A DNA stretch of 64,000 bases from the IMG/VR virus record IMGVR_UViG_3300010413_000005, positions 32,001 through 96,000 of that record; one strand, given 5' to 3'. Below, piece after piece: positions 8,685 to 33,500 of the stretch. Origin of the DNA: a virus. Below the pieces are notes generated by a model. The model was not told the DNA's origin. It searched no databases and worked only from the letters and a program-made list of their open reading frames with translations. Made by a program: the position numbers and the translations under genes. The first letter of the stretch is position 1, and each line of letters starts with the position of its first letter.

Positions 8685-11600
8685 CTATTTGTAGTTGTAA
8701 ATTTTCAAAGCTGTACCGCAGAAGTAACTCGTGCTTCTTCTTCGATCTGATTTCTTCTCTACTTCTACGGCTATCATCTTACCTATGGAAATGTGTTTGC
8801 TAATACTTCTCCAAGTGCTGGCAAAACTTATGATTTCTATGAGTTTTCCGTCCGCACTTATCAATCCTAAGAAGGCCATTTCATTGCCGTTCTTATCGTA
8901 TTTTTTTCGCACGTTAGTTACGATACCTGTATAAAATCCACCTTCTTTGGACTTATGAAATTTGTAATTGGTAGTTCTAATTTCCTTGATTTTGTCATTT
9001 TTCCATTTATAAGTAAGCGCCGGATGCTTTCCGGTGGCTATCAATTCCCAAACGTTCAATTGTTCCCAAGATTGTATTTTGGATCGAAGAGATTCCAAGT
9101 TTACAGCGAAATGCGCTTTCAGATTCTCGTATTTGGCGTTGGGAGTTACACAAGCGATTACCGGAGTGCCTATTCCCTTATCTATGATCGCTCTGTATTC
9201 ATCGAATACGTCGATATCGAACTTGGTCCGATACTGTTTTCCTCCCGGATCTTCCAAGTTGACGTTGGCGTAGCGCGCGCCCCAAAACATCTCTTTTCGT
9301 TCTCTTTCGGACGGCAAGTCTCCGGTGTGAAAGTCGCCTATTTGATTGTATTTGACTTCTACTATGACCGCGGCGACGATACATGCTTTATTCCCGTAAT
9401 CGGCGAAAAAGTCTTCATCACTCATAGAAACTATCGGCAATTTGATATTTTCTTCTATGAAGTCCTTGTACGCTTCTATGGGGTGCGTCCCGAGCGCTAG
9501 CGGATTCACTTCTGAAGAAATCAAACACAAATCTTCTTTTGAGTATTCTTCGGCGCCCTTCGCTTCTTCCAACATAGCGATGACGTCGGCATACTTCTTC
9601 TTAGCCACCAACGCCCAAATAGATTCCAGATTCTCTACCATCCATTTGACGCTGGGAACCATCCCCTCAAGAGCTCCGGCCTTGGACAGAGCCATAACGA
9701 CTCCTTTGTGGCATTTTCTCGCGTCGACTCTAGATATGAAATCCACGAAATCTTTGAATGGCTGATTGGCCATAATAGTATCTGCGGCCGCCGATCCGAC
9801 TCCTTTGATATCTATCAACGAACCTCTGATAGAACGATCGGCCGCGTCCATACTGAAATGCTTCTTGCTGACGTTGATATGCGGAGGTTTCAATTCTATT
9901 CCGTAATTTTTCTTGGCTGCTTTGGCCAATCTTTGTATCCGAACGCGCTCCGGTTCGTTCTTGAGCAACGCCCAATAGAACTCTAACGGATAATGTATCT
10001 TCAACCACATGGTCCAATAGCCTATCAACCCGTATTCGGTAGCGTGCGAATTGTGCGACACTACCGGAGGCGAATCCGGGCTGTGTCCCGCTACGAAATT
10101 GTGTCCTACGGAATCCATCTCCAAATCGTAACAATGCTCTTTACCGTTGGGCGTTATTTTGATTATTTTATCCGCGAAAGTAGGACGGCCCTTGCCCCAA
10201 CGCTTTGTCCTCTCTCCCTTTTCGTAATCCAATTTCTTGTGACAAGAATTGCACAACAAACGCAAATTGGCTTTGCTGTGAAAGGCGGCATGGTTGTAAT
10301 CGCATTCGGCTGGAGATTTGATGTGCGCCACTTCTCCGCCACCTCTGCCTTGGCGACAAATTGTACCGCAATTAGAACATCTGCTATCGGATTCTATCCA
10401 AACTTGCTCTACTTTCAATTTGTATTTGTCGTTGATACGATCCGCTTGGGCGAATCTGGTATCTTTGTTCATCCACCACGGACAATAATCCTTAGCGGTA
10501 TTTTCTCCCATAAACATCAATTCGTCGCCGACAGACAAGCCGGTAGCTATCGATTTGTACCCCCTAGAAGTCATCAACCTGTGCATTCGGCTGATGGCCG
10601 GAGTTTTGTTGCCGGATTCCGTTTCTATGACAAACGTTTCGCGAATGCCGTGATCATGTATTCCTATTAGACGTGCCGGCCGAACGCGCCCATCTTCGTC
10701 CATTTGCAAAAGATGTAATCGACCACCTCTTATCTTTTTCGCTATCGGAGTCAAACGTCCTTTTTCGTCTCTAGAATCTCTCAAACGAACCAACTCTCCG
10801 ATTTGTATTTGCGATTTAGAATGGCTATTAGCTCCTGGCTTCCAAACCCATGCGTTTTTACATATAGTCTTGTTAAATCCGTACGAGCCAAAAAATGTTA
10901 TCGCGTCCATTATCTTATTGGCAGTTTTCGCGTCGACTCCGGCGTGTTTAGCGGCGCCTTCAACGAACTTCGCGCGTTCTTTCCCCAAAGTCTCGTCGCC
11001 TATCTTCTTGGCTATCGTTTTGCGCAATGAATCCGCGGTTCCGGGAGCGAATCCGGCGATGTCTGTGAATATGCGTATAACGTGTTCTTGGTAAACTATG
11101 ATCCCCAACGTGTCCGATGTTATTTCCGATACCTTTGGGTGGAAGTCTACCTTTTTGGCCAACTTCGGATTCTTTTTGCGTTGTATGTACTTCGTAGCCA
11201 AGCCGGACCGAGCGGTCCCTGGTCTGTTCAACGCAGTCATGGCAGGTATGTCTTCGAAGTCGGTGAAGTTGATACCCATGCAAATCTTATCAGCGCTAGG
11301 CGTATCGTATTGGAAAATTCCGTCGTATTTGTGATCAGTGAATCCCTGTAGCGTTTCCGGATCGTTCAAATCGAAGTCGTCGGATTCCAAGTCCAATTTC
11401 TCTCCGGTATTCTCTTCGATCGCTTCCAAACATTCTTTGATGACGGTGAGAGTTCTCAAACCCAACACGTCTATTTTCACCAATCCCACCGCGGCGACGT
11501 TGTACATGTCGGTTGCTGTGACCACTACCGAATCGCCTCCGGATTCCGCTTTACGAACTTCCAACGGCAATAAATCGGTCAACGGGACCGGAGATGCTAC

Positions 11601-13322
11601 GACTCCGGCCGCGTGTATGCCCGGATTCTTAGCCAATCCTTCCAGGCTCTTGGCGTGATAGAGCACCTTTGGATATTTCTTATCGAATTTTCTACACACG
11701 TCGAAGTCTTTGAACGAATCGGCTATTGTCTGACTGGCGCGTTCGTCTCCGCTCGAACGCTCGATGATGCTTTTGGTTACTTGATTGACTTCCGACAACG
11801 GAACTTCCAAAACGCGAGAAACGTCCTTCAAACATTGTTTACCGGATAGTTTGCCCACGGTTGCGATCTGAGCCACTTTATCGCGCCCATACTTACTCAC
11901 CAAATATTCAAATATCTCTTGTCGTCTTCTGTCTTCGAAATCACAATCGATATCCGGCAAGTCGATACGATACGGATTCATGAATCTTTCGAATATCAAT
12001 CCGTGCTCCAGCGGATCGACAGAGGTTATTCCGAGCAAATATGCCACCAAACATCCTCCTACGGAACCGCGTCCTGGTCCGCACATGATTCCGGAGCTTC
12101 GAGCGAATTTGTACAAGTCTCTGATTATCAAGAAATACGGCACGAATTTCAATTTTACAATTGAACCCAATTCGTACTTCAACCTGTTTCCGTACGTCTG
12201 TATAGCGTCTTCGTAACTCACCCCGTTTTTGGCAGAGTATTTACGCGCTCGGGATTTGATATTCCTCCAAGCCCATCCTTCTAAACACAAATCTTTTAAA
12301 TAAGCTGTTTGATCTCCGCGATATTTATCAGGTACGGATAAGTCGGGCAACAAGGCTTGGTGGTAATCGACTTTGAATTCCACGTTACACATTTCTGATA
12401 ACTTCACAGTTGAATTCAAAGCTTCCTTGACGTCTGTTACGGAGAAAAACGGATGGTATTTGAAGAAAGCGGATTTCATTTCTTTCCGCTTTCTCATATG
12501 AAATTCGTTCCCGTCGAATTTGAATCTGTTCGGATCGCTCATGAAGTTATTCGTACCGATACACAACAAAACCTCGTGATGTTCGGAATCGCTCTGGTGT
12601 ACGTAGTGCGCGTCTTGTGTTGCCAACAGCCTATTGGACTTCCCGTATCTCTTGCGCAACTCGAGAGCGAATTTGTTGGCCGTCAATTGGTCCGGAATGT
12701 TGTGCGGTTGGACCTCAATCCACAGATTACTACCGAACTCATCTCTCAATCGATCGGCAAATTCGATCGCGAACCTTTTCTTACCCAGCACGCATGAATC
12801 GTATACCGGACTAGCCAGACATCCCGTGCCCAAACTGATTCCTTCTTTGTACTCGCACAAAGCTTCAAGATCGATTCTCGGTTTGTAATAAAATCCGTCG
12901 ATGTAAGCCGAACTGGACAGTCTGAATAGGTTCTTCAATCCCTCCGAGTTGTGCGCCCAAGCCGTTATGTGCCAGCGTTTTGATATGCCGTGTTTCTCTT
13001 CGTATTCCTTGATGACTTTCTTGGCTTCTGCTCCCTTCTTGCCTTCTGAAATCTCGTTCTTTTCCTCCGCGGTCAATCCCTTCCTGTGCATATTATTACA
13101 CACGTAAAATTCGATTCCGTATATCGGCTTCACGTCGGTTCCCTTGCACTCTTCGTATTGGTGCATATATCCGCGCATGGTTCCGTGATCGGTAAAAGCG
13201 ATCGCCGGATTGCCTCTTTGTTTGGCTTCTTCTACGTAGTCCTTGATTTTACTTCCACCATCCAAAGTAGAATTATCACTATGCGTGTGCAAGTGTACGA
13301 AGTCTTCTTTTTTATTTGGCAT
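8685..13322 (-). CDS. dnaE: DNA polymerase III alpha subunit (family C), intein-containing
   Basis: PHP domain FVHLHTHS/AFTDHG, GPGRGSVGG, catalytic PDIDCDF, GIHAAGVV, KIDVLGL, YGFNK/SHA split by an intein, C-terminal OB-like region. Confidence 0.97.
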   Translation of the reverse strand: MPNKKEDFVHLHTHSDNSTLDGGSKIKDYVEEAKQRGNPAIAFTDHGTMRGYMHQYEECKGTDVKPIYGIEFYVCNNMHRKGLTAEEKNEISEGKKGAEAKKVIKEYEEKHGISKRWHITAWAHNSEGLKNLFRLSSSAYIDGFYYKPRIDLEALCEYKEGISLGTGCLASPVYDSCVLGKKRFAIEFADRLRDEFGSNLWIEVQPHNIPDQLTANKFALELRKRYGKSNRLLATQDAHYVHQSDSEHHEVLLCIGTNNFMSDPNRFKFDGNEFHMRKRKEMKSAFFKYHPFFSVTDVKEALNSTVKLSEMCNVEFKVDYHQALLPDLSVPDKYRGDQTAYLKDLCLEGWAWRNIKSRARKYSAKNGVSYEDAIQTYGNRLKYELGSIVKLKFVPYFLIIRDLYKFARSSGIMCGPGRGSVGGCLVAYLLGITSVDPLEHGLIFERFMNPYRIDLPDIDCDFEDRRRQEIFEYLVSKYGRDKVAQIATVGKLSGKQCLKDVSRVLEVPLSEVNQVTKSIIERSSGDERASQTIADSFKDFDVCRKFDKKYPKVLYHAKSLEGLAKNPGIHAAGVVASPVPLTDLLPLEVRKAESGGDSVVVTATDMYNVAAVGLVKIDVLGLRTLTVIKECLEAIEENTGEKLDLESDDFDLNDPETLQGFTDHKYDGIFQYDTPSADKICMGINFTDFEDIPAMTALNRPGTARSGLATKYIQRKKNPKLAKKVDFHPKVSEITSDTLGIIVYQEHVIRIFTDIAGFAPGTADSLRKTIAKKIGDETLGKERAKFVEGAAKHAGVDAKTANKIMDAITFFGSYGFNKTICKNAWVWKPGANSHSKSQIQIGELVRLRDSRDEKGRLTPIAKKIRGGRLHLLQMDEDGRVRPARLIGIHDHGIRETFVIETESGNKTPAISRMHRLMTSRGYKSIATGLSVGDELMFMGENTAKDYCPWWMNKDTRFAQADRINDKYKLKVEQVWIESDSRCSNCGTICRQGRGGGEVAHIKSPAECDYNHAAFHSKANLRLLCNSCHKKLDYEKGERTKRWGKGRPTFADKIIKITPNGKEHCYDLEMDSVGHNFVAGHSPDSPPVVSHNSHATEYGLIGYWTMWLKIHYPLEFYWALLKNEPERVRIQRLAKAAKKNYGIELKPPHINVSKKHFSMDAADRSIRGSLIDIKGVGSAAADTIMANQPFKDFVDFISRVDARKCHKGVVMALSKAGALEGMVPSVKWMVENLESIWALVAKKKYADVIAMLEEAKGAEEYSKEDLCLISSEVNPLALGTHPIEAYKDFIEENIKLPIVSMSDEDFFADYGNKACIVAAVIVEVKYNQIGDFHTGDLPSERERKEMFWGARYANVNLEDPGGKQYRTKFDIDVFDEYRAIIDKGIGTPVIACVTPNAKYENLKAHFAVNLESLRSKIQSWEQLNVWELIATGKHPALTYKWKNDKIKEIRTTNYKFHKSKEGGFYTGIVTNVRKKYDKNGNEMAFLGLISADGKLIEIISFASTWRSISKHISIGKMIAVEVEKKSDRRRSTSYFCGTALKIYNYK
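10050..10868 (-). mobile_element. Intein (273 aa) with HNH homing endonuclease in DnaE
   Basis: Interrupts the conserved FNK|SHA. Starts TICKNAWV; block B SRMHRLMT; block F CYDLEM..HNFVAG; ends VSHN before Ser+1. Internal CSNC...AHI...NLRLLCNSCH HNH/Zn motif. Confidence 0.92.
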
Positions 13323-13584
13323 TTTCTTCTATCAAGTACAGAGCGACGTCTTTCAAATCTTCCGGATAATCTCCGAATACTATTTCGTCCAGCACCGACG
13401 GTTCTTCAGCTCCCATCTCGGCCAGACTTCTTTTTTTGCCGTTTATCGTCAATTTCGCGTCGTATCCCCTAACGTCGATATCATATTCCAATTTCTCTTT
13501 GGCGATATTGAATGACGAATTGGTAGGCAGTCCGGAGACTCGAGCTCCGGACGCCCATTGTCTTATCTTCTTCAAAGACGGCAT
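13312..13584 (-). CDS. Hypothetical protein
   Basis: 90-aa ORF bridging thyX-like and dnaE with tight spacing/overlap. Confidence 0.7.
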   Translation of the reverse strand: MPSLKKIRQWASGARVSGLPTNSSFNIAKEKLEYDIDVRGYDAKLTINGKKRSLAEMGAEEPSVLDEIVFGDYPEDLKDVALYLIEENAK

Positions 13585-13587
13585 GCG

Positions 13588-14607
13588 CTATTCGTTCTCT
13601 AATCTTTCTCCGGTCCAAGGATTCCTTTGCCAGAACACTGCGTATTCCGCGGCGCGATCGATCATCTCGTAAGCCATAGGAACCTTGTATTTGTGCAACG
13701 TATCGATTTGATGAGCTTTCGATATATCTTCTTGTTTCCCCATCTGTTCAGGTATTCTGTGGTGACGGAAATGAAGAGGACAAGGAGGATGTTGATCCAA
13801 TCCTTCGTACCGACGTCGATTCTCTTCGTGATAGACGCATCCGGAAAAACAATCGTCCTTGATACACGGAGGGCAAACCAGTTCCGCGAACGCCGGATGG
13901 ACCTTGTTGACCAGTTCGCTTACTATTCCCATGATGACTGGACCCCACAACCCCAATTGCAAAATGAAACAACCTCGTTCTCCGACTATGTGTTGCAACG
14001 AACTGATGTTCATTTTCCAACTCATACGGTGTTGAGATGCGAGCGGCATCGTATCCCGAGCGTCTTCCATAGGTATGTTGCTAGCCACCAAGAAATTGTA
14101 AGTTAGCTGTATTCTCTCCATCAGATCGACGTACGCCCTCAACACGTTAGGATCTCCGTGTCTCAAGATGCTTTCCGGTATGCGATAGTCGCTATCGGTA
14201 AAGAATCGACCTTGATTCCGGATGCGCATTGACTGCGACCAGAACGACGATTTGGCCAGGTCTGGTACAATGTCCATGTAGATATCGGCTCCGATCGATT
14301 CCGGTCCTGGAAGAACTCCGATTCTGTGACGCACGGCTTGTTCCCTCCAAGATATCGAAATGTGTTCCAACATGAAAGTGAAGTCGATGTGTTCTCCTAC
14401 CGGTATGCGTTGTTTTATCACCGAGTGAAAAACGTCTTGCACTTCTTTCGCCGATACCTTCGAATACACTTGGTCCGGAGTCAATAACTCGTCGTCGTTT
14501 TTCGAAGCTTGCCAAACACTGTAAATCGTTTCCAACGGAAACGCTGTGAAAGTCAACAGCGTGACTTTCGGAGTCTTTACCAATCTTTTGTTCGCATTAT
14601 TTTCCAT
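13588..14607 (-). CDS. thyX: Divergent flavin-dependent thymidylate synthase (ThyX-like)
   Basis: EHIDFTF, EQAVRHR, SQSMR, EDARDTMP, MNISSLQH..ER, Cys-rich C-terminus; RBS GGAG. Confidence 0.85.
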   Translation of the reverse strand: MENNANKRLVKTPKVTLLTFTAFPLETIYSVWQASKNDDELLTPDQVYSKVSAKEVQDVFHSVIKQRIPVGEHIDFTFMLEHISISWREQAVRHRIGVLPGPESIGADIYMDIVPDLAKSSFWSQSMRIRNQGRFFTDSDYRIPESILRHGDPNVLRAYVDLMERIQLTYNFLVASNIPMEDARDTMPLASQHRMSWKMNISSLQHIVGERGCFILQLGLWGPVIMGIVSELVNKVHPAFAELVCPPCIKDDCFSGCVYHEENRRRYEGLDQHPPCPLHFRHHRIPEQMGKQEDISKAHQIDTLHKYKVPMAYEMIDRAAEYAVFWQRNPWTGERLENE

Positions 14608-15181
14608 TTCGATCTCCTTTCGTCAATATGCTAACCGCCAAGTCCCAAAGTCCTTCCGGCGATGTGTGATCTGTGATCAATTTCCACACGCGTGGTACGT
14701 GTTTCCCGATTTGATCGGAGGCGTAATCCAACCGATTGTTTATTCGTTCGGCGTTCTCGGGCATCCTAATTCCCACCCTGCCAACCGAAGTTTTGATGTC
14801 GCACATCAAATGGATGTAAGTCAAATCGGTTCTGGATTTGATGATGTCTATCCACCATTGTAACGTTTCTTCGGCCATTTCTCGATTGAAAAAATCTCCG
14901 TCTTCCAACCCGTACGCGAACGCTGACGGCATCGAACGATCTAACACACATTCCAACGACGTGAATTTGGATAACAAATCCGCTACGAATAGATCTTCTA
15001 CGTACGAATTGAAAGGGATCCTGAATCTCCTCAGTTTCAATTCCAATTCCTTGGCGTGTTTGAAATGAATTGCTGTGTCGTCCTTGAATGCTCTTACGAT
15101 AGGGATATTGAAATATCCACTGACTTTTTTGGCTAGAGTCGTTTTACCGACTCCGTTCATCCCTTCGATTATCACTAACAT
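14597..15181 (-). CDS. dNMP / thymidylate kinase-like P-loop kinase
   Basis: IIEGMNGVGKTT, VLDRSMPSAFAYG. Confidence 0.88.
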   Translation of the reverse strand: MLVIIEGMNGVGKTTLAKKVSGYFNIPIVRAFKDDTAIHFKHAKELELKLRRFRIPFNSYVEDLFVADLLSKFTSLECVLDRSMPSAFAYGLEDGDFFNREMAEETLQWWIDIIKSRTDLTYIHLMCDIKTSVGRVGIRMPENAERINNRLDYASDQIGKHVPRVWKLITDHTSPEGLWDLAVSILTKGDRNGK

Positions 15182-16368
15182 CGTGATTTAGCTTCCATCG
15201 CCGAATGTGCTTGTTCCAGAATAGACAATCCGTAATCGAGATCGTCAAGTGTGATATTCAGCGGAGGAGTGATTTTCACCGGTCCTGGTCCCTTCCGGAA
15301 CGCTCCTATGAGCAGACCTCTCTTCAAACATTCCTGCCCCAATTCCAACACGTCGTGCGGACTATCGTACGCTATCAACAGGCCGGTTCCTCTAACGTTT
15401 TTCGGATATCCGATTTTGCCCAACACGCTTTTGACGTGAGACGATTTGCCGTTTATCGAATCCATGTTGGGCGAATACTCCAGATAGTCCAACATACCGT
15501 TCACGTGCGCCATACCGATCGGATTACCTCCGAACGTAGAGAAGTGAGTTCCGGAGGTGAATGTTTCGCTAAACGGTTTCAACGCCAAACAAGCTCCGAC
15601 CGGGCATCCCATAGCTACTCCCTTGGCCATCGTCATTACGTCCGGCTGTACGCCTATCTTTTTCGCGTAAGAGAAATCTCCGCAGCGTCCGGCGCCGGTT
15701 TGGACTTCGTCGAATATCAACGTTATGTTGTGTTCGTTACACTTGACTCTCAAGTCGATCAACCAGTTGTGATCGTATTCTCGGACGTCGTTGTTGCCGA
15801 ATACTGGAGCTATGAGGACCGCGGTGGCCAAATATGGATCTATCTCTTCCAGATGTTCGAATTTTCTGAATCCTCCAGTCAGCGGTCCGAATCCCTCTGT
15901 GTGGTGCGGAGGACCGTCGCCGGCCGATAGCGATCCCAGAGTTCGGCCATGAAATGATCCTTTCACTGTGTAAATGTATTTGCTACGTCCTGATTCGTAC
16001 GTAAAATCTGATTTGAATCTCTTGTATTGATACAAACGCGCCAACTTGATCGCCGCTTCGACCGCTTCGGTTCCGCTGTTACAAAAAAACACCTTATCCA
16101 TACCGGTCAAATAACACAGACGTTCCGCGGCGATGTTTCTCTCCTCGAAGCTGAACAGATTGGGAACGTGAACCGGAGTGTGATTCCCTTTCATATCGCT
16201 AATCACTCTTTCGTGACACACGGAACAATATCCCAACGACGAAGTTCCGACGTCGCAGAAGAAATCCAGGAATCTCTCTCCGCGTCTGGTAATCAAATAA
16301 GATCCGTTTCCCGATACGAACTCGGGAGCGTATTGATTCAAAGTATTCATCAACGATTTGTTACACAT
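15175..16368 (-). CDS. Class-III PLP aminotransferase (ArgD/ornithine aminotransferase-like)
   Basis: NSGTEAVEAAIKLAR, SFHGRTLG, FDEVQTGAGRCG, PLP lysine in MAKG, HFSTFGGNP. Confidence 0.92.
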   Translation of the reverse strand: MCNKSLMNTLNQYAPEFVSGNGSYLITRRGERFLDFFCDVGTSSLGYCSVCHERVISDMKGNHTPVHVPNLFSFEERNIAAERLCYLTGMDKVFFCNSGTEAVEAAIKLARLYQYKRFKSDFTYESGRSKYIYTVKGSFHGRTLGSLSAGDGPPHHTEGFGPLTGGFRKFEHLEEIDPYLATAVLIAPVFGNNDVREYDHNWLIDLRVKCNEHNITLIFDEVQTGAGRCGDFSYAKKIGVQPDVMTMAKGVAMGCPVGACLALKPFSETFTSGTHFSTFGGNPIGMAHVNGMLDYLEYSPNMDSINGKSSHVKSVLGKIGYPKNVRGTGLLIAYDSPHDVLELGQECLKRGLLIGAFRKGPGPVKITPPLNITLDDLDYGLSILEQAHSAMEAKSRC

Positions 16369-17273
16369 CTATTGTCCTCCGCTAATCTGGTTATGTCCTT
16401 CCAATTGTATACCCTTGTGATGCTTTCGTGTTCCACGGATTTGTTTTTAGGAGTGTCGTAAAGTAAAACCTTGATTCCGGCTTGCGCCAATGATAATGCG
16501 TTCCTATCCAAGTCTTCTACGAAAAAAATCGGCCATGCCGGAGAAATGTGTCTGTAAACCGCCTCTACTTTGTCTCTGTTGAAAAGCAATATGTCGTACG
16601 GTATTTTGTATTTGCGCAACCACCATAAGGTATCGTGATACATTCTCTTGAATTGCCATTGCGGTCGCGCCGTTATTATGGCTATCTTATACCCCATCGA
16701 TTTCAATTTTCTGATTCCGGTAATCGCTCCGCGGATCGGTTTCAATTCCCGGAGGAATCCCTTCGAATGCAATTCATCCTTGTATGCTTCGATTTCGTCG
16801 AATCCCTTGCCTCTGTATTCTCTTTCGCTTTTAGAACGCAGAGCGTTGAAATCGGTTATCACGTCGTCCATGTCCAAACAAATCAACTTGGTGAACTTGG
16901 ATAATTTGAATTTGGCCGCGGTCGCGCGCGTCGATATCACTTTGGTTTTGCTATCGAACACCTTGGCTATGTCTTCCGGTTCGATTCCGTACACCAAAGA
17001 CAAAGAAATCGTGATTTTCAGAATATCCACCAATTCCTCTACCACATTACGTTTATCGGGAGAGTGTGTGTCCAAAAGGTGTCGTTTGTAGGAAGGTGAC
17101 AAACGAGCCAATTCGCCCACTTCTTCGTACAACAACATCGTCAGATCTTGAATCGCTCGAGTCGCCTCTAAATTGCTCATGCAAGACGAATCCATTCCGA
17201 ATTCCTTCTGCTGTTCTTTTTGCAGCTTCCAGAATGCGTCCAAGGATCTATCGAGCGATTTCTTACTTTCCAT
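16350..17273 (-). CDS. MazG/dUTPase-like NTP pyrophosphohydrolase fused to HAD 5'(3')-deoxyribonucleotidase
   Basis: N-terminal EEVGEL...EELVDIL (MazG ExxE...ExxD); C-terminal HAD motifs LDMDDVI, ITAR, K, FVED. Confidence 0.85.
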   Translation of the reverse strand: MESKKSLDRSLDAFWKLQKEQQKEFGMDSSCMSNLEATRAIQDLTMLLYEEVGELARLSPSYKRHLLDTHSPDKRNVVEELVDILKITISLSLVYGIEPEDIAKVFDSKTKVISTRATAAKFKLSKFTKLICLDMDDVITDFNALRSKSEREYRGKGFDEIEAYKDELHSKGFLRELKPIRGAITGIRKLKSMGYKIAIITARPQWQFKRMYHDTLWWLRKYKIPYDILLFNRDKVEAVYRHISPAWPIFFVEDLDRNALSLAQAGIKVLLYDTPKNKSVEHESITRVYNWKDITRLAEDNRCVTNR

Positions 17274-18258
17274 CGCCTACTCCCTTTTTCCTCCAACCCC
17301 AATGCTTAGCCAAATCGTACGCTTGCTCCATGACGACGTCGACGGTGGCGCGCGGATTCCAACTCGCGAACCGACCCAACGGCGCGACTCTTTCCGGCCA
17401 TTGAGGAGGTTCCGCCAATGGTAGCAAATGCCCTTTCATATTCCTTTTCCATTCCAGTATTTCGAATCCGTTGGGGAATAGAAAATTCAAATCAGAATAA
17501 ACTCCTGATTCGTTCATTTCTCCGGATACTTCACACGAATAGAATCCGTCTACGTATGACAACCTGTGTATGGAATTTCCCGGAGTGTACGGTGTGTAAA
17601 CGTAATCCCAACGAACGTACGGATTGCCTACCGGTTTCACGTTTATCAAATGCAAGGCCATCGCCGTAGAATCGGGAAAGTGTTCGAAATGTCCTATCTT
17701 TTTGATGATCCACAACGGTATGGTGAATACCAAATAATCGAAATCGAACGTAACGGCGTTGGTGTTTATCGCGATTCCGGCGTCAAGAGAGAACGTAGCT
17801 ATAGCGCTATTGTTTATATTGGCTCGTTTGCCCAATTCTTCTATCAACGCGTTCAAATCACATCTCATGCCCTTTTTCGTGTTACCGGAGAACGGATCGT
17901 TCATGCACTTGGTAGAGAATTCGCTGGGTTCCATCTTGCGCGTTTTTACGTAATGATCGTGCTGTATACGCTCAAACGCCTTCCGTCCTACTTTCTGCAT
18001 GTGTTTACGATAGTCCTTGACTTCTCCTTGTAAGTGTATCCCTCCCTTTATGGTGAAGTTGCTGTACGCCAAACCGAGTTCTCCGAGCATCGATCTGATC
18101 AGATTACTTTTGTGTAGATACTTCAATCCTCCAGAGGAGAACTCTCCTCCCAATTTGTTGGGTTCGAATACCGTCACTTCGATATCGTAAAATTGATTGA
18201 AAACGTAAGACGCGACCAACCCGGAGATTCCTCCTCCTACCACAATTACTTTTTTCAT
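17263..18258 (-). CDS. FAD-dependent oxidoreductase (UDP-galactopyranose mutase / protoporphyrinogen oxidase-like fold)
   Basis: Rossmann VIVVGGGISGL, FE...LGG, C-terminal LGRFASW. Confidence 0.85.
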   Translation of the reverse strand: MKKVIVVGGGISGLVASYVFNQFYDIEVTVFEPNKLGGEFSSGGLKYLHKSNLIRSMLGELGLAYSNFTIKGGIHLQGEVKDYRKHMQKVGRKAFERIQHDHYVKTRKMEPSEFSTKCMNDPFSGNTKKGMRCDLNALIEELGKRANINNSAIATFSLDAGIAINTNAVTFDFDYLVFTIPLWIIKKIGHFEHFPDSTAMALHLINVKPVGNPYVRWDYVYTPYTPGNSIHRLSYVDGFYSCEVSGEMNESGVYSDLNFLFPNGFEILEWKRNMKGHLLPLAEPPQWPERVAPLGRFASWNPRATVDVVMEQAYDLAKHWGWRKKGVGDGK

Positions 18259-18324: not shown

Positions 18325-19209
18325 CTAAACACGATTCGAAACCTCGTCCAAATCGGTTCCGGAAGGTGACCCTATGATACCTTCACCGATGAATCTACAT
18401 ATAATTTCTGCTACTATGGCTATCCCTTCTATATCCATTTTTCCAGTTTTGGTGATGAACTTGCCATCCGAAAATTCTATCAAAAACAGCTTTTCTATTT
18501 CTCCTTTTCGAAAACATTCCAGAGGAGCAGCTATCCTAATTTCAGCCTTTCTGATGCGTATGGATGGACAAATAGCGGCGACCGCTACGCGGCGATTCTT
18601 AGGCAACTCCAAATACACAGACATGTAACGGCTGTTCTTCATCCTATCGATTACCACCAAATCTCCGACCGAAGCGTTTTTGGATCGCGAAATTCTCTTG
18701 CCGGAAATATTGGACAACCTTTGGAAGAATCTCATACAGAAATCTCGCGCTCGATCCAATGCGTCGCTGGCAGCCGTTCTTTTGGATTCGGTGATTTTCT
18801 TTTTCGTGCTATCGTCCATCGGAGACGCTTTACGCAAAGACGTAACGTTTTTACGCCTTTTGGCTTTCACCGCGGAAACCTCCGGTTTTGATTTTGTAAT
18901 TCTGCCATTTACTATTCCCCAAGCTTCGATAGTCTTGTTCAACAACGCTATCAAATCTTCGTCTTCCAAATGTGTGAAACAATACGTTCGGCGATCTCCG
19001 TCTTCGTCGGTGATTCTTTCGCGTCGCATGTAATTGGATACTCTGAGACTATTCGATTTGCAATGTTTCCTCAACGCAACACATCGATTCCTCATCACGC
19101 AAGGCATCTTATCGATCGGAGAATCTCCTTTTCGTTCTCCGTCGCATTGCGTATCTTTACGGGAATAATACCCGAAACATCTAGGGTACTTTTTTTTGTT
19201 TTCGAGCAT
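18325..19209 (-). CDS. Hypothetical basic protein with Cys-rich N-terminus
   Basis: 294 aa; CFG..C..C...C cluster; overlaps the end of the sigma-like gene. Confidence 0.7.
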   Translation of the reverse strand: MLENKKKYPRCFGYYSRKDTQCDGERKGDSPIDKMPCVMRNRCVALRKHCKSNSLRVSNYMRRERITDEDGDRRTYCFTHLEDEDLIALLNKTIEAWGIVNGRITKSKPEVSAVKAKRRKNVTSLRKASPMDDSTKKKITESKRTAASDALDRARDFCMRFFQRLSNISGKRISRSKNASVGDLVVIDRMKNSRYMSVYLELPKNRRVAVAAICPSIRIRKAEIRIAAPLECFRKGEIEKLFLIEFSDGKFITKTGKMDIEGIAIVAEIICRFIGEGIIGSPSGTDLDEVSNRV

Positions 19210-20209
19210 CTGAAAGCTTTTTTACCAGTTGTGAATACCAAGTCACGTAATCTGACACATATTTCCAAGTGTATTCAGCTCCTGAAACACCTCCTGTAAT
19301 CAAATTGTATTTACCCTCTAAAACCAAAGTCTTATGAATCTTTCCCTTCTTCAAGAACAGTACCGCTCCCCAATGGTAGTAATGAACCTCTCTCGCCCAT
19401 TCTCCGGCCGATTGGATATCCCTGGCCGGATCGTTAGGTCTGGGATCAAGATTGCGTTTCTTGATTATCTTTCTGACGAAATCGTAATCGAATTTGTTAT
19501 TCTTGCTTAGGTGTATCATGGGCCAAGTACCCTTGTCTATATATATCTGTGATATCTCGGGAAATTCTGATTCTGCCAGATACGTAAACGCCCTCCTGAT
19601 TCGTAGGCTGGAATAGTCGACCGCGTTCTTGCTCACACCGATATACTTGGCTATCAATCCGTTGGTCATCTCGGATTCGCCTTCGTTGTCCATGAAAATC
19701 ATGAACGCCTCCGGTGGATGACACATGATATCCAAAACGGTCCGATCTCGTTCGCACAACTTGTTTCTCAATTTCATTTTCAATTCCAGGCGACGCTGGT
19801 TGTCTTCGGATTGTTCGTAAACGGAATACGGATCCGGGATGTCTCCCTTGATAGTTTCTCCGGATTGCTCGGCCATCTCTTCTATCGAGACTAACTGCCA
19901 AGCCTGTTTGGAAACTATCATCCGTCCGTTTCTTTCTTGAACTACGTGCGGAACCTTGGAATTGGTCATAGAATTCTGTATTATTCTTATGGCTTCGTAT
20001 CTCAAAACCTTACTGACGAATCTGTGGAATTTACCTCTTCCGGCGTTGAAATCGTACGAATCGAAACACCTCTGAAACATGGCCACGCGCAATTCTTGCA
20101 TTGCGTCGTCGAACGGGATACCGGAAGCGATGTTGATTTTTCTAGCGTGCGTTTTCAGAATTGGCCATACGTGCTTTTCCAAATCCGCGTACAATTCTTG
20201 TAAAACCAT
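19181..20209 (-). CDS. RNA polymerase sigma-70-family-like factor
   Basis: Region 2-like DDAMQELRVAMF..FDSYDFNAGRGKFHRFV; region 4 HTH-like NGLIAKYIGVSKNAV; start moved to ATG 20209 (RBS GGGAG). Confidence 0.7.
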   Translation of the reverse strand: MVLQELYADLEKHVWPILKTHARKINIASGIPFDDAMQELRVAMFQRCFDSYDFNAGRGKFHRFVSKVLRYEAIRIIQNSMTNSKVPHVVQERNGRMIVSKQAWQLVSIEEMAEQSGETIKGDIPDPYSVYEQSEDNQRRLELKMKLRNKLCERDRTVLDIMCHPPEAFMIFMDNEGESEMTNGLIAKYIGVSKNAVDYSSLRIRRAFTYLAESEFPEISQIYIDKGTWPMIHLSKNNKFDYDFVRKIIKKRNLDPRPNDPARDIQSAGEWAREVHYYHWGAVLFLKKGKIHKTLVLEGKYNLITGGVSGAEYTWKYVSDYVTWYSQLVKKLSDARKQKKVP

Positions 20210-21824
20210 TTCGATCTCCCTTTTTACCGAACAACTTCTTTCCCAGACCACTGTACAAAGCCAAGGGTAAATCATCCAATTTCATTATCGCGGAACAAAC
20301 GGCTCCGGTTTTCTGATTGTAAAATGCGGCCACATCTATAGTAAGCACGCCTATGGATATCACTTCTATTCCGGATTTCGTTATCGTTTCCACAGATTCA
20401 GCCAAATGGTTGGCTAAAATACCACTGTCGCATCCGTACGCCAAGGGCGCTCCGTCCGACAATACAATCAACACTTTGCGCTTTTCTTGTCGCACTATCA
20501 AACGTTTAGCAGCAGACAAAATCGCTTCTCCGTCCGCGTTATCCATGTATCCGTCGATGAAAGAGAATCTACTTCTGCACACATTTAGTCTTTCATCGAA
20601 TTCCTTGAATACTATGTAATCGAACGGCGCTCGAGCCTGATATATCTCGTCTTCGAAGTTGATTCCCTTCGGATATCTTTCCACATTGTTGTGAAATCCC
20701 AATACTTCAAACGGGATTCCCAATCTCTCTATGGTGTCGGATAATCCTACGGCGGATACTCTTACGTGCCAAGCCTTGGTCTTTTTCTTTTTCGCCTTGC
20801 CCATGGAACCGGACAAGTCAATCAAAATCAATATCGCTGTTGAAGTATCGACCGGAGCTCCGCGTTCATAATGCACGTTTCGATTACCGGTTATGACCGA
20901 ATGTAGAGAAGAAGAATCCAGAAATCCGCTATCTCGGTCGCCGATCGGAGCGCGTTCCTTTTCCGCTCTCATTGTTTCGATAATCGCCCTGCGCATCGCC
21001 GAAGCATTCTTCTTCGTTTCTGACAAGTCGGATACGAACGTGGACGCGTTTCCGGTAGTCGGTTTCACCCAACGGTCCATGGCCAAACAATCCGGATGCG
21101 GAATGTATCTGCCATTCTTCAACACGTCGTTCTTTGATTCCTGTTCGATTTTGTCTTTCAATCGCGATTTGAAATCGAAAGATTGCTCTCCGGCCGGAGG
21201 GATGAACGAAATCATAGGAGATATCTTCTTGGCCAATTCGTATGTACTTTCGGAATCGGCAAGCGATTTCACAGACAAAAACATCTCAGATATCGGTTCG
21301 TATTCGGATCTAACGTGATCCGGAATCCACCTCAAATCCAGATTCAACCCGTCGGATATCGCTGCGCACAAAAGCATTTTGAAGTCGGACAATTCTCCGG
21401 CCTTGGATTGCTTCTCTAACAACTTCGACGCCTCATTGTTGGAGAAATCCAGATTGTCTTTCATTCCCGGATAAATCGCGCCGTATTTCAATTCTATTCT
21501 GATGTCTTCCAAAGCGTTGAATGCCGACTTCACTTTCACGTCGGATTCGTTTTTGTACAGATCTACGGCGCCCCTCAAACCGCGATTCTTGGAATACACT
21601 TCTTCGGCCGCGTGACACAATTCGTGATCCAGTTCTCCGTTCAACGCGCGCATTGAGGACTTGCCCAGTTTGTCCGAATTGTAAGGCAATCTTATCACGG
21701 TTCCGTCGAAATCACAACGGCATCCGGTCATTTCCACTGATACGTGGTAATTGTTCGATATCGCGCGCGCTATGTTAGCGAACGGAGTCTCCAGCTTCCG
21801 GAGGTGTTGAACAGATTTTTTCAA
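20142..21824 (-). CDS. CobT-like VWA-domain protein
   Basis: N-terminal HELCH and NALEDIRIE; MIDAS IDLSGSM, NADGEAI, VLSDGAP. Confidence 0.85.
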   Translation of the reverse strand: MKKSVQHLRKLETPFANIARAISNNYHVSVEMTGCRCDFDGTVIRLPYNSDKLGKSSMRALNGELDHELCHAAEEVYSKNRGLRGAVDLYKNESDVKVKSAFNALEDIRIELKYGAIYPGMKDNLDFSNNEASKLLEKQSKAGELSDFKMLLCAAISDGLNLDLRWIPDHVRSEYEPISEMFLSVKSLADSESTYELAKKISPMISFIPPAGEQSFDFKSRLKDKIEQESKNDVLKNGRYIPHPDCLAMDRWVKPTTGNASTFVSDLSETKKNASAMRRAIIETMRAEKERAPIGDRDSGFLDSSSLHSVITGNRNVHYERGAPVDTSTAILILIDLSGSMGKAKKKKTKAWHVRVSAVGLSDTIERLGIPFEVLGFHNNVERYPKGINFEDEIYQARAPFDYIVFKEFDERLNVCRSRFSFIDGYMDNADGEAILSAAKRLIVRQEKRKVLIVLSDGAPLAYGCDSGILANHLAESVETITKSGIEVISIGVLTIDVAAFYNQKTGAVCSAIMKLDDLPLALYSGLGKKLFGKKGDRNGFTRIVRGFGKARMANSENAR

Positions 21825-22936
21825 GTAGTTCCTCCGAAATGTCTCTGTACCAATCCGCCTACGAAAACGGAATCCGAAGCGTCCATCTTATTCAATATGG
21901 TGATTCGCGCCGCTCGAGTTACATCTTTCAGTTTCAAATTTTTGCGCGACCATTCGATCAACGACCGAGTTGAAATGGACGAATAGCAATCTCCTCTACT
22001 GCAAGACTCTCTAACCATGTTGGCCAATCTGACCATCTTGGTCGCCGTTCGGTCGTCTATTCCCTTACACCGCTTCATCAATATGGATTTTTCCACTTTC
22101 GGACTCGGGAACGTCATATATATCACGACTCCGAACCGATCGACGAATGACTCTTTTTGAGGCAAATCATTACATGTAGCGATGATTCTGAAATTGGGAT
22201 CGAATTCGATCGATCTGCCTCCGTCTCCGGTGATTACCAGCTGGCGAGGTTTGGTCATGGCGGTGTACAACGAAAACGATATGTGTCCGGGCATCGCTTC
22301 GACTTCTTCCAACAGTAGCCAATAACCGCGATCGGCCGATATCGGTAGCGAACCGTCAAACCATTCGGTTTTTGATTGCCCGGTCTTCTTGTCGATGGTC
22401 ACACCCTTTTCTCCGATGAATTCGGCTTTGCGCATATCCCCATCGTTTTGTACCCTCAATACCGGTTGATTGCAGATCGAAGCCAACTCCATAACCAGGG
22501 TGGATTTACCGACTCCGACCGGTCCGTGTATCAGAACATTGTCGTCATCTTCGATTCCCAAAGACAACTCCTCAAGATGACCCGCTTCTCGATCTGATAT
22601 GATCCATTCCGGATCATGTATCGGAACCATTTTGGAATCTCTCTCCGAGAGCTCTCTTTTGAAAGAAGGACTCGCAGCCCCTATTCTGAATACTGTAAAA
22701 GATGATCCGGTTCCCGGATCGACTCCGATTATGTTATGGCGACTTGCCTCTTTGCGCAATTGGTGCGCTGCGTCGCTGACCGTCGGAGCTCCGGGATACT
22801 TGTTCAGATACGCGATGACGTCCATATCGTGTTTCTTGTTCACGTGGACGTCTAATCGATGATACCATTGTCCGCATTCTTTACACTGTATTTTTTTGCG
22901 GCCTTTTCCGTCAATGCTGCTAGTAGGATCTCCCAT
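21821..22936 (-). CDS. CobS/MoxR-like AAA+ ATPase with N-terminal C2H2 zinc finger
   Basis: CKEC...H...H; Walker A GPVGVGKS; LLLEE; FRIIATCN; DRF; ISTRSL. Confidence 0.88.
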   Translation of the reverse strand: MGDPTSSIDGKGRKKIQCKECGQWYHRLDVHVNKKHDMDVIAYLNKYPGAPTVSDAAHQLRKEASRHNIIGVDPGTGSSFTVFRIGAASPSFKRELSERDSKMVPIHDPEWIISDREAGHLEELSLGIEDDDNVLIHGPVGVGKSTLVMELASICNQPVLRVQNDGDMRKAEFIGEKGVTIDKKTGQSKTEWFDGSLPISADRGYWLLLEEVEAMPGHISFSLYTAMTKPRQLVITGDGGRSIEFDPNFRIIATCNDLPQKESFVDRFGVVIYMTFPSPKVEKSILMKRCKGIDDRTATKMVRLANMVRESCSRGDCYSSISTRSLIEWSRKNLKLKDVTRAARITILNKMDASDSVFVGGLVQRHFGGTT

Positions 22937-30586: not shown

Positions 30587-33500
30587 TCACGGAAGTGTAA
30601 CACTGGATTGTAGAACGTTATCGTTGATAACAGCTCCGGTTCCAGTATTTTGGATCGCAGGAGTCGTGGTGTATTCATTCAAACAGATATTTTCCGTTAC
30701 GATGTTATAATTTCCACTAGATAGATTGATCCAATCGTTATTGCCCATTCCGACCGAATTCGAGTTGGCAAAAAGGTGATTGGCGTGTACTCGTAATGAT
30801 TGGTGAAGCGTTCCAGCCTTGATGAATTCTCCTTCGTATTCCATGGTGAATTCGCAATTTTCTACTGATCCGCCATTGTGAAGAGAACTATCGGAGAACT
30901 CAACAAGGAATGTATTGAACGCTCCGTTCGATCCTTGGTTGTTCCTTACCTTTCTAATCTGACAATTGTGCGCGTTGCTGACCCTGATGAATGTACGTCC
31001 GTAGCTCGCGTAATTGGAAGTCGTACTTGTGAAGTACCATTGCCCTCCGTATCCGTACAAGAACAAGTCTTCTAAAACACAATGGTCGCCTGTCACCTCT
31101 ATATACGATTTACTAGTCGGTTCCGGAGGTCTTGCCGAATTGTAGAATTCGAATCTGGCGTGAATTATTTTGCAATAATCTCCTGCCATTTCTATGCAAG
31201 ATTCGACGTTGCCGCTTCCGAGAGAAGTATCGAAATCTGTCAACATCTTGAGATTCATTATCGTCGTTTCACCCTTCATGGAAAAGAACGCGAAACCAGG
31301 AGAAACGACATCCCAAGAAGTAGGAATGAAATTCAATTCGAAACCGTCTACGAAACAATCCGTAAAGCAGAAGATTGAATCATTTCCCGGTCCGGCGATA
31401 TCTCGATCCATATACACACTTTGTACGTCTATCACGAGATCTCTGATTTTGCAATCCTGGAATAAAATCCATTCGTAATTGTGAATTGTTCTTTCATCTG
31501 TGGTTCCGGTCGCCTTCCTGAATTTGCAATTGTATAGTGTTCCTTCCTTGATTTTGATCATATGATCGGTAGCGCCGCTGAATCTCATGAAAGTAGCGTT
31601 CATATTGAAGCTGCAATCAATGTAATCGACGCCTTCTGTGTCTATCATACAAGGTTGGGAGGAGTTGTCTCTGTCCGCTTCTGCGCCGGAGAAATGGCAA
31701 CCTCTGAAAGTTCTTTGAGACGTTTCGTGTGAAGTTCCAGCAGAAGAAAGAACGAGTTTTCCGCTATCCGAATACACATAACAATTCTCGAATGAAACCT
31801 TGCGATTGCCACTAGTGATGCTTATGGCCGGAGTGTAATTCGCCGTTCCTCCGGCGTCGATGACGATTACACAACCGATGAAATGCGAATCTTCTCCGTC
31901 GACTACGAGAGCATTTTGTCCTGATTCTTTTTGGATGAATGCGCAATTTACGAAAACCTTTTTTCTGGAAACTGCGTATCCGTTGTTGTACGGCGATCCT
32001 TGCGTCTTGAACGTCGGCGATCCGTTCGTTTCATTCACGAAAACGCAATTGGAGAAGTAATCAACGCTAACACCTGTGGAAGTCGTTATTACTTGGAATG
32101 TTCCGCTCGAGAGCGGCGTTCCGGAACCGGAAAGAGAATCCGGAACATGACAACTGCGCATCGAAGTGGCTTCGTTTCCGCCCAAACCACCTCCACCGGT
32201 GGCTGTGCCGCCTCCGTAGTGTTGAAAAGCGTTCGGAGCAAGTAGGCAATGTTCAGCATGAAACGGACCGTCGTCTCCTAAGATGGAATATAACGTCGCG
32301 CCCATCTGCAGATTTTTGAACACACCGTACCAATTGAATCCAGAAACCGCGGTGGGAGCGAACAATCTCGATTTCAAGATGTTCTCGCCTTCGATAACCG
32401 GCATGTACGATTTGCTCATATTTGAACTGGTAAAGAGAAAAGTTCCGGTTCCTTTCAAGAAGTGTTTTTCGGAACCCCAAGACGAAATAACGCTATCTAT
32501 TCCTTGAAGATCAGCCTGCATGGTCGCTTGGCTAACGGAATGTGTAATGCCGATACGAGATCTGGCGAGTTGACGATCTGCGTCGGTCATCTTGGTTTTC
32601 ACTTCGTTTCCGCTTGTGCCGAGTCCTCCCCAAGAAGCAGAAGCAGAAGGAGCGGTTTGCGCGTAACTGGAAGGATCGAGGCAAATCAGATTTGCGCCTC
32701 CGGCGACGCTGGTCAAATCATCCACCATCTCTTCTATCGCCGTTTGCATATTGGTAGCTGCGATCGCCCAACTGATAGGAGACGCTCCGGTGTACGGTGT
32801 GAAAGATATGCTTACGGCCGAATTGGCAGCCAAGATTATCTGTCCGCTGATGTCGAACACCGTAGGCGTTCCGCCGTTACCGGTAACAACTCCGGCGAAG
32901 AAATGAGCTCCGGAAGTCGATATGGGATTGCCGGCCGCGCGGCGAACGGAAATGCCTACCAGTTGAACCCAATAATCGGATGCGGTCGTGGACACCGTGG
33001 TCTGTCCCAAAGTGCCAGTGGTAGTTATCTTGTTTTCTCCGCCTCCATAAGCTACGGTACACTCTTCTATCGCGATCGCCGGAGTCAACGCTCCGGCCGC
33101 GGGCACCTTCCTGAAGACTCGAACAGTACGTCCGGAGTTGTCTTCTCCGTTTTGGGTTACCGAATCCACACCAAATGTTATCGTTCCGCCATTGTCTACG
33201 ACCGAATCCGGTTCCGCTTGTTCTCCGACGTCCTCTATGTATTTGACATATTCCGGATTGCCATACGTAGGATTGATCTGAATTCCATAAGGTTTGGAAA
33301 TGTATCCGGCGCCTACTTCGTAATCAACAGCGTTCGAATTTTCGAACACCGCGGAACGAGTTACGAGAGAAAGATCCAGAATGTTGCCCAACCCGTCGTG
33401 CGCGTCTCCGGCACCTCCGGTCTTCAGATCCATTTGTACTTGATCCGCTCCCGGAGAAGATAAAGCCATCTTTTCCAAAAAGCTTCCGTTGCTGTAGGCG

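Follow-up and report, generated by a model that had tools for sequence, protein, structure and literature searches.

The window analysed here, a stretch of 64,000 nucleotides corresponding to positions 32,001 to 96,000 of the viral record IMGVR_UViG_3300010413_000005, comes from a complete viral genome of 113.8 kb that carries direct terminal repeats, and encodes a homologue of the flavin-dependent thymidylate synthase ThyX, here named ThyXL. Its gene belongs to a minus-strand cassette comprising, in order, (i) a small flavoprotein resembling UDP-galactopyranose mutase (UGM), (ii) a fusion of a dUTPase-like domain with a HAD 5'-deoxynucleotidase, (iii) a class-III aminotransferase, (iv) a P-loop kinase, (v) ThyXL, (vi) an open reading frame (ORF) of 90 residues, and (vii) the phage DNA polymerase DnaE (Table 1). 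The genes overlap by 7-19 nucleotides, the stop of the kinase gene overlapping the start of the ThyXL gene by 11 nucleotides, except for a short gap at the 90-residue ORF. ThyXL is a genuine, heavily rebuilt protein of the Thy1/ThyX fold and belongs to a virus-only branch. Its features are neither a product of chance nor a lone oddity; more than 240 homologues, with identities of 50-80%, share them, as do 132 representatives of the family.

The homology to ThyX, which the first-pass annotation had proposed from motifs read by eye, is borne out by the Pfam Thy1 profile (PF02511), which aligns to residues 49-213 with 64 bits (E 2e-17) against a gathering threshold of 24.8. All the strings on which that reading was based occur in the protein, namely QRIPVGEH (66-73), RHR (93-95), SMRI (126-129), EDAR (181-184), NISSL (200-204), and LQLGL (216-220). 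The ThyX equivalog of NCBIfam (TIGR02170) reaches 48.2 bits, below its curated cut-off of 87.9, and a single-sequence phmmer search of ThyXL against the PDB matched no solved structure; ThyX from Thermotoga maritima (TmThyX) is reached in that database with the ThyXL family profile only, not with the single protein. The AlphaFold2 (AF2) model, built from 31 homologues with a mean predicted local distance difference test (pLDDT) score of 82, superposes on TmThyX, a comparison that had been suggested as a check, with a VIA-align Z score of 12.7 and a root-mean-square deviation (rmsd) of 2.8 Å over 200 residues (Foldseek E 4e-8), and it matches ThyX from M. tuberculosis and the ThyX-fold enzyme PolB equally well.

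Residue correspondences were established by HMMER profile alignment to TmThyX, by hhalign comparison with a canonical phage ThyX carrying RHR-x8-SQRY, and by structure; the Tm residue numbers are those that we take to apply to TM0449, allowing for a 12-residue tag offset visible in the HMMER alignment. Conservation counts refer to the 132 family representatives at ≤50% identity, unless stated otherwise. The six dUMP-contacting residues Tm Q75, R78, S88, R90, R147, and R174 correspond to Q90, R93, S126, R128, R184, and R211, all invariant or nearly so, and Tm E144, N163, and Q180 are likewise preserved as E181, N200, and Q217. The retention of the nucleotide side, including RHR, the Ser/Arg pair and EDAR, thus holds in proper alignments as it did by eye. 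R128 is present in all 132 representatives and R211 in 131, position 126 is Ser or Thr in 126 and Gly in 6, and R88, R128, R184, R211, W221, and W326 show three exceptions at most. The family has acquired new invariant residues, including the tryptophans W123, W197, W221, and W326 and the acidic E89 and D182. On the flavin side, the proposal that FAD binding is retained stands for RHR and N200; at the positions of Tm E86, R165, N169, and H178, however, ThyXL has S124, S202, H206, and I215. Further replacements concern Tm Y91, which is I129 here and Ile or Val across the representatives, and Tm E182, which is G219.

The signature histidine that lies about 25 residues before RHR and stacks on folate/NADPH (Tm H53) is absent from ThyXL, where the position is R67, and the position is unconstrained in the family, where it reads D, G, K, E, A, Q, or R. 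The suggestion of an altered folate pocket is upheld to this extent, but the loss is no proof that folate is unused, because ThyX binds folate through few side-chain contacts, and the invariant residues W123, W197, W221, and W326 could stand in for the histidine. A different carbon donor or product, as the first-pass annotation had envisaged, would fit both the gene context and the experimentally modified relatives discussed below.

Two insertions further distinguish ThyXL from canonical ThyX. The RHR-x7-S motif is indeed stretched, with 30 residues between RHR and the serine (IGVLPGPESIGADIYMDIVPDLAKSSFWSQ then SMRI), rather than the approximately 28 first estimated, against the canonical 7-8, and the RHR-x7/8-S signature is lost. 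Among 239 family members, the spacing from RHR to Ser/Thr ranges from 7 to 57, with a median of 26, and only five show the canonical 7-8. Insert 1, the loop responsible, varies in length within the family and falls in a region of low model confidence (pLDDT <50 for residues 91-118 of the monomer AF2 model); its end, (I/V)PDLxxS, is conserved. Insert 2, overlooked in the first sequence-only reading, is modelled with pLDDT values of 84-97 and represents an insertion, not a tail, because the superposition picks up again at the C-terminal helix (residues 312-326). It contributes three cysteines, C248, C257, and C276, each present in 132 of 132 representatives, to a set completed by C213 (128 of 132), which lies two residues past the catalytic arginine. 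A regular expression describing this set, with one cysteine two residues after the catalytic arginine and three in an insert before the C-terminal helix, is matched by 244 of 269 sequences. The spacing, C-x34-C-x8-C-x18-C, includes no CxxC pair, and the arrangement fits a putative metal centre, either Zn or Fe-S, close to the active site.

Table 1. Features of the ThyXL gene, of its cassette, and of the rest of the genome (window positions, except where genome positions are indicated; aa, amino acids)
Feature	Position	Strand	Length	Basis or remark
ThyXL coding sequence	13588..14607	-	339 aa	ORF, Pfam Thy1, AF2 model
RHR motif, R93-H94-R95	14323..14331	-		Kept; aligns to Tm R78-H79-R80; present in 115-130 of 132 representatives, invariant in alignment A1
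Insert 1, residues about 99-120, between RHRIG and SSFWSQSMR	14248..14313	-	about 22 aa	hhalign gap against canonical phage ThyX
S126-M127-R128	14224..14232	-		Tm S88-G89-R90 dUMP contacts (hhalign); S88 and R90 kept
R211-G212-C213	13969..13977	-		R211 is Tm R174 (catalytic Arg, kept), followed by the first conserved Cys; HMMER alignment to TmThyX
Insert 2, residues about 246-310, with C248, C257, C276 in PPC...GC...PPCP	13678..13872	-	about 65 aa	Conservation, structure
UGM-like flavoprotein	17263..18258	-	331 aa	NAD_binding_8; AF2 pLDDT 94
MazG/dimeric-dUTPase-like and HAD NT5C 5'-deoxynucleotidase fusion	16350..17273	-	307 aa	Pfam dUTPase_2, NT5C, HAD_2; PHROGs
Class-III (omega-type) aminotransferase	15175..16368	-	397 aa	Pfam Aminotran_3, 225 bits
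Divergent P-loop kinase	14597..15181	-	194 aa	Weak AAA_28/dNK matches; PHROG thymidylate kinase, 1.6e-9
ORF between ThyXL and DnaE	13312-13584	-	90 aa	No family match; tblastn counterpart in one related locus only (L016)
Phage DnaE, last gene of the overlapping string	8685..13322	-	1545 aa	Pfam DNA_pol3_alpha, PHP, finger, HHH_6
Thymidylate kinase (Tmk)	genome 26028-26654
Cytidylate kinase	genome 28281-29060
UDG-superfamily protein	genome 31497-32129
Dam-type methyltransferase	genome 20252-21070
MT-A70 methyltransferase	genome 27644-28276
Radical SAM protein	genome 3350-4204
dCMP deaminase	genome 106509-106898

The ThyXL family is large, an exhaustive search with clustering at 50% identity returning 556 clusters with E≤1e-3, of which 169 have E<1e-30. 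All members found are viral, and a scan of 185,579 bacterial and archaeal genomes with the family profile found none, so that the family offers no clue to the host. Four homologues (P0121, P0122, P0061, and P0209) are interrupted by inteins at two sites, corresponding to residues 125/126 and 212/213 of ThyXL. The first site, FWSQ|C...VHN|SMR, places S126 at the +1 position (P0121), and the second, KRG|C...VHN|CWILQ, places C213 there (P0122 and P0061), a placement typical of catalytically critical sites. These insertions, together with active-site residues that are near-invariant across hundreds of sequences and with the retained RHR flavin motif, make it very improbable that ThyXL is a non-catalytic or regulatory protein of the ThyX fold, for instance a nucleotide sensor or an accessory factor of the polymerase, as might be supposed from the replaced FAD contacts (Tm E86, R165, N169, and H178) and from the tight coupling of the gene to DnaE.

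About 25 related contigs of viruses, approximately 80-116 kb long, carry the cassette set at 26-58% identity, with DnaE syntenic with ThyXL in all related loci, the dUTPase-like/HAD fusion conserved, the aminotransferase on either side of ThyXL with linkage kept, and the kinase preserved beside ThyXL or the aminotransferase. Particular to this member are the long loop following an intact RHR and the enlargement of the cassette by the class-III aminotransferase, the P-loop kinase, and the dUTPase-like/NT5C fusion. The modelled flavoprotein is closest to UGM of the eukaryote type, superposing on the T. cruzi enzyme with a VIA-align Z score of 26.8 and an rmsd of 3.1 Å over 322 of 331 residues, compared with Z scores of 23.3 for protoporphyrinogen oxidase and about 20 for amine oxidases; some of the eukaryote-type UGMs were crystallised with NAD(P)H. 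The aminotransferase falls below each cut-off among the 25 best NCBIfam families listed, and a large insertion, a putative intein, separates the finger domain of DnaE from HHH_6. Against isolate phages, tblastn of the cassette kinase and of the cassette flavoprotein gave no match, nor did megablast of 12 kb. Upstream of the cassette (19181-22936), an ECF-like sigma factor (364 residues), a CobT-like VWA protein (560 residues), and a CbbQ/MoxR-type AAA_5 ATPase (371 residues) are syntenic in most related phages; a database search with an upstream ORF of 294 residues yielded nothing informative.

Elsewhere in the genome, beyond the window or at its edge, a bona fide thymidylate kinase (Tmk, 137 bits) is encoded, in addition to a dCMP deaminase, a cytidylate kinase, a UDG-superfamily protein, Dam-type and MT-A70 methyltransferases, and a radical SAM protein. 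The whole genome contains no ThyA (no PF00303 match), no trimeric dUTPase, and no ribonucleotide reductase, and only one Thy1 gene. Judged from this gene content, ThyXL is the only gene product in the genome predicted to be able to form a carbon bond at C5. The same pattern extends to 26 related viral genomes, where ThyA is found in none and ThyXL is the sole Thy1 gene in 25.

The reading that we tentatively favour is that ThyXL is a flavin-dependent transferase of a carbon unit to C5 of dUMP, initiating the synthesis of a modified thymidine nucleotide; for this reading we infer the binding of flavin, the binding of metal by the four cysteines, the identity of substrate and product, and the sequence of the steps. 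The dCMP deaminase and the dUTPase-like domain would supply dUMP, which ThyXL would bind to form the carbon bond at C5 of the uracil. Its folate/NADPH-stacking half-site would have been rebuilt through the loss of the signature histidine, the 22-residue loop after RHR, and the four-cysteine insert anchored two residues past the catalytic arginine, and the enzyme would head a pre-replicative pathway rather than simply make dTMP. The product could be 5-hydroxymethyl-dUMP or a longer 5-alkyl-dUMP, formed with the UGM-like flavoprotein as a partner. The class-III aminotransferase may then tailor the side chain, the divergent P-loop kinase may phosphorylate the product, and DnaE may incorporate the modified nucleotide. 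A second nucleotide substrate is suggested by the divergent kinase of the cassette, because the bona fide Tmk sits elsewhere in the genome. An aldehyde donor is chemically precedented, because the flavin of ThyX reacts with formaldehyde (PDB codes 7NDW and 7NDZ).

Support for this modified-nucleotide pathway may also be drawn from studied phages. In the Pbunavirus (PB1-like) phages F8 and 14-1, about one quarter of the thymidine is replaced, in a TG context, by nucleosides of 362 and 390 U, which were read as sugar-alcohol or aldopentose derivatives and for which the genes are unassigned (PMC12191111). The DNA of phage SP-15 contains 5-(4,5-dihydroxypentyl)uracil, and gp130, an orphan Thy1 protein of this phage, has been put forward as a hydroxymethyluridylate synthase (PMC5977210). 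The Pbunavirus homologues of the cassette proteins and the link of SP-15 to T-modified DNA suggest that ThyXL acts in such a pathway, as do a duplicated ThyXL beside a radical SAM/SPASM gene in one relative and a ThyX-like gene paired with a flavoprotein in a Vibrio phage, both described below.

Several points weigh against the favoured pathway. A dCMP deaminase, the sole thymidylate synthase homologue, and a true Tmk form the classical trio of dTTP supply; the cassette is inherited with the replication module, and its synteny therefore reflects shared descent in part; the partial, TG-context mark of Pbunavirus cannot be explained by an enzyme of the nucleotide pool alone; and the assembly of the contigs from ordinary metagenome reads speaks against a bulky, complete replacement. 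In addition, about 35 of 50 more distant ThyXL loci belong to a different phage type without the aminotransferase, the flavoprotein, and the kinase within 9 kb, and therefore the generic role of the family need not involve these enzymes. We considered a strict linkage of ThyXL to the aminotransferase and the flavoprotein but discarded it, because both are missing from about 35 of these 50 loci.

A reading that is nearly as likely is that ThyXL is an ordinary flavin-dependent thymidylate synthase, converting dUMP to dTMP, of a divergent viral branch with a rebuilt cofactor half-site. Folate would then be held by other residues, such as the new invariant tryptophans, and the aminotransferase and the kinase would serve another purpose. 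The four cysteines would either bind a structural Zn or carry an Fe-S relay, to which the UGM-like flavoprotein would pass electrons as an NAD(P)H-dependent reductase. Such a synthase agrees with the ThyX fold, with the retention of RHR and of all the dUMP-contacting Arg, Ser, and Gln residues, with the presence of no other thymidylate synthase homologue in 25 of the 26 related genomes, with the deaminase and the true Tmk of the phage, with the very large size of a family often without tailoring enzymes, and with the NAD(P)H found in some relatives of the flavoprotein; and the partial, TG-specific mark of Pbunavirus fits a post-replicative route independent of ThyX. However, dTMP synthesis sits uneasily with an unconstrained signature-histidine position and a failed equivalog cut-off, leaves no role for the conserved and translationally coupled aminotransferase, the extra kinase, and the flavoprotein, and accounts neither for the modified thymidine of Pbunavirus, for which no other C5-carbon-forming enzyme is known, nor for the ThyXL duplicate beside a radical SAM gene.

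In the second phage group, that of the more distant loci (L084:10786-13677 and neighbours, L049-L088), ThyXL is located beside a UDG-fused family-A DNA polymerase (PolA), an HD YfbR-like 5'-deoxynucleotidase, and a nucleoside 2-deoxyribosyltransferase-like protein, together with a PD-(D/E)XK nuclease, AAA_24, and DUF6378, and with a radical SAM/SPASM protein in 10 loci. With the hidden Markov model of the flavoprotein, no member was detected in these PolA-type ('group B') loci or, at E<1e-3, in Pbunavirus, whose protein was linked by hhalign only. The isolate polymerases closest to the UDG-fused PolA are those of SP-10 and SPO1-like phages, and a link between UDG-fused PolA and genomes with modified T has been drawn (PMC13697223). 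A complete 55-kb phage (L085:5437-9987) encodes two ThyXL paralogues flanking NADAR, radical SAM/SPASM, and active-clade DUF488 genes, the second paralogue displaying RTHRH and SESHQ with the four cysteines kept.

A variant of the modified-nucleotide pathway, which we consider unlikely, departs from it in the carbon donor: ThyXL and the UGM-like flavoprotein would together constitute a reductive C5-alkylase using an aldose or aldose phosphate instead of methylene-tetrahydrofolate or formaldehyde. UGM forms a flavin N5-sugar iminium, analogous to the flavin N5 intermediate of ThyX. The C5 of dUMP would attack such an iminium, and subsequent reduction would yield a 5-(polyhydroxyalkyl)-dUMP, whose chain the aminotransferase would aminate before phosphorylation of the nucleotide by the cassette kinase and incorporation by DnaE. 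The coupling of an aldopentose gives 228.2 + 150.1 + 2.0 - 18.0 = 362.3 (dU + pentose + 2H - H2O), which equals in mass the F8 nucleoside of 362 U and lies two oxygens above the dihydroxypentyl-dU of SP-15. The variant agrees with the idea, raised in the first-pass annotation, of a donor other than methylene-tetrahydrofolate, and conflicts with TG specificity, unless further steps take place at the level of DNA.

The substrate itself might differ, ThyXL acting on dCMP to give a 5-substituted cytosine, or on a ribonucleotide, as PolB does with UMP, with the dUTPase-like/HAD fusion clearing canonical dCTP/dCMP. T4 combines a hydroxymethylase, a dCTPase, and a kinase by a similar logic. PolB is structurally as close to the model as true ThyX (Z 12.4), the sugar-contacting Tyr91 equivalent is Ile/Val, and the invariant E89 and D182 could read an amino group. 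This possibility nevertheless seems improbable, given that the arginines binding the uracil carbonyls (equivalents of Tm R90 and R174) are invariant, that the dCMP deaminase of the phage makes dUMP, and that in relatives with experimentally shown modification it is T, not C, that is modified.

The signature residues of ThyX, a textbook enzyme that is also a target for antibiotics, are regarded as essential. The present family constitutes a very large virus-only branch in which the signature-histidine position is unconstrained, the RHR-Ser motif is stretched, and a four-cysteine site lies beside the catalytic arginine. If the branch still makes dTMP, it would show that the folate/reductant half-site can be built in another way, perhaps with the help of a separate flavoprotein reductase. 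Otherwise, the branch may provide the missing carbon-bond-forming enzyme for the sugar-like T modifications of the Pbunavirus therapy phages and of SP-15-like phages; a modified product would make ThyXL the first ThyX-fold enzyme in DNA hypermodification. Literature searches found neither a hydroxymethylase of the ThyX type nor a pathway combining ThyX with an aminotransferase.

Compared to ThyX from T. maritima (TM0449, PDB codes 1O26 and 8REQ), ThyXL preserves the fold, RHR, and the equivalents of Q75, S88, R90, E144, R147, N163, R174, and Q180, but it displays the loss of H53, a spacing of 30 instead of 7 residues, and the 65-residue insert with its four-cysteine set, within a family restricted to viruses. 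PolB from Streptomyces cacaoi, a UMP/dUMP C5-methylase (PDB codes 4P5A and 4P5B), shares the ThyX fold, and its altered substrate use is a precedent for functional drift; in contrast to ThyXL, it is a bacterial enzyme of antibiotic biosynthesis, of canonical length and without the Cys insert.

Among phages, the 'ThyX' of Pbunavirus, which we count in the viral four-cysteine branch, aligns to the ThyXL family through C248 (hhalign 99%). Its cysteines match in R-x-C and P-x-C, and another two follow downstream, but it carries RTR instead of RHR and has no insert 1. As in the present phage, DnaE follows the ThyX-like gene, and the flavoprotein encoded upstream, designated UDP-galactopyranose mutase in one record, is homologous to that of the cassette (hhalign 86.7%, E 4e-6). 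The Pbunavirus cassette, however, comprises neither the aminotransferase nor the P-loop kinase, and the HAD fusion found there belongs to a different type; a kinship between the dUTPase-like/HAD fusion and the Pbunavirus phosphatase fusion was considered and dropped, BLASTP showing no similarity. DNA modification has been shown experimentally in Pbunavirus.

The best match of ThyXL in an isolate phage is an orphan Thy1 protein, the product of gene 124 of Listeria phage LIS04 (species Thornevirus SP15), with 23% identity over 86% of the query, which is probably the counterpart of gp130 of SP-15. The two proteins have in common the WxQ(S/T)xR and IxQxxLWxPII motifs and an extra C-terminal region, but the LIS04 protein carries RSK instead of RHR and has neither insert 1 nor any of the four cysteines. 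In the unrelated 40-kb podophage vB_ValP_VA-RY-3 of Vibrio (L091, record 19580-21108), the gene for a UGM-like flavoprotein ends 2 nucleotides before that of a 236-residue ThyX-like protein with RNR instead of RHR and without a cysteine after the catalytic arginine; the pair therefore travels outside DnaE phages, and the flavoprotein also shows tblastn matches in Escherichia, Serratia, Xanthomonas, and Rhizobium phages, among others.

Finally, dUMP hydroxymethylases of the ThyA fold are described in the phages SPO1, M6, and ViI, whose DNA contains 5-hydroxymethyluracil or hypermodified T (PMC8989533). The role proposed for ThyXL resembles theirs, as both would perform the first pre-replicative step of T modification alongside a dNTPase or nucleotidase and a dedicated kinase. 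The SPO1, M6, and ViI pathways go on post-replicatively via 5-HMUDK and aGPT-Pplase, and their hydroxymethylases are unrelated to ThyXL in fold and chemistry, the resemblance being a functional one only.

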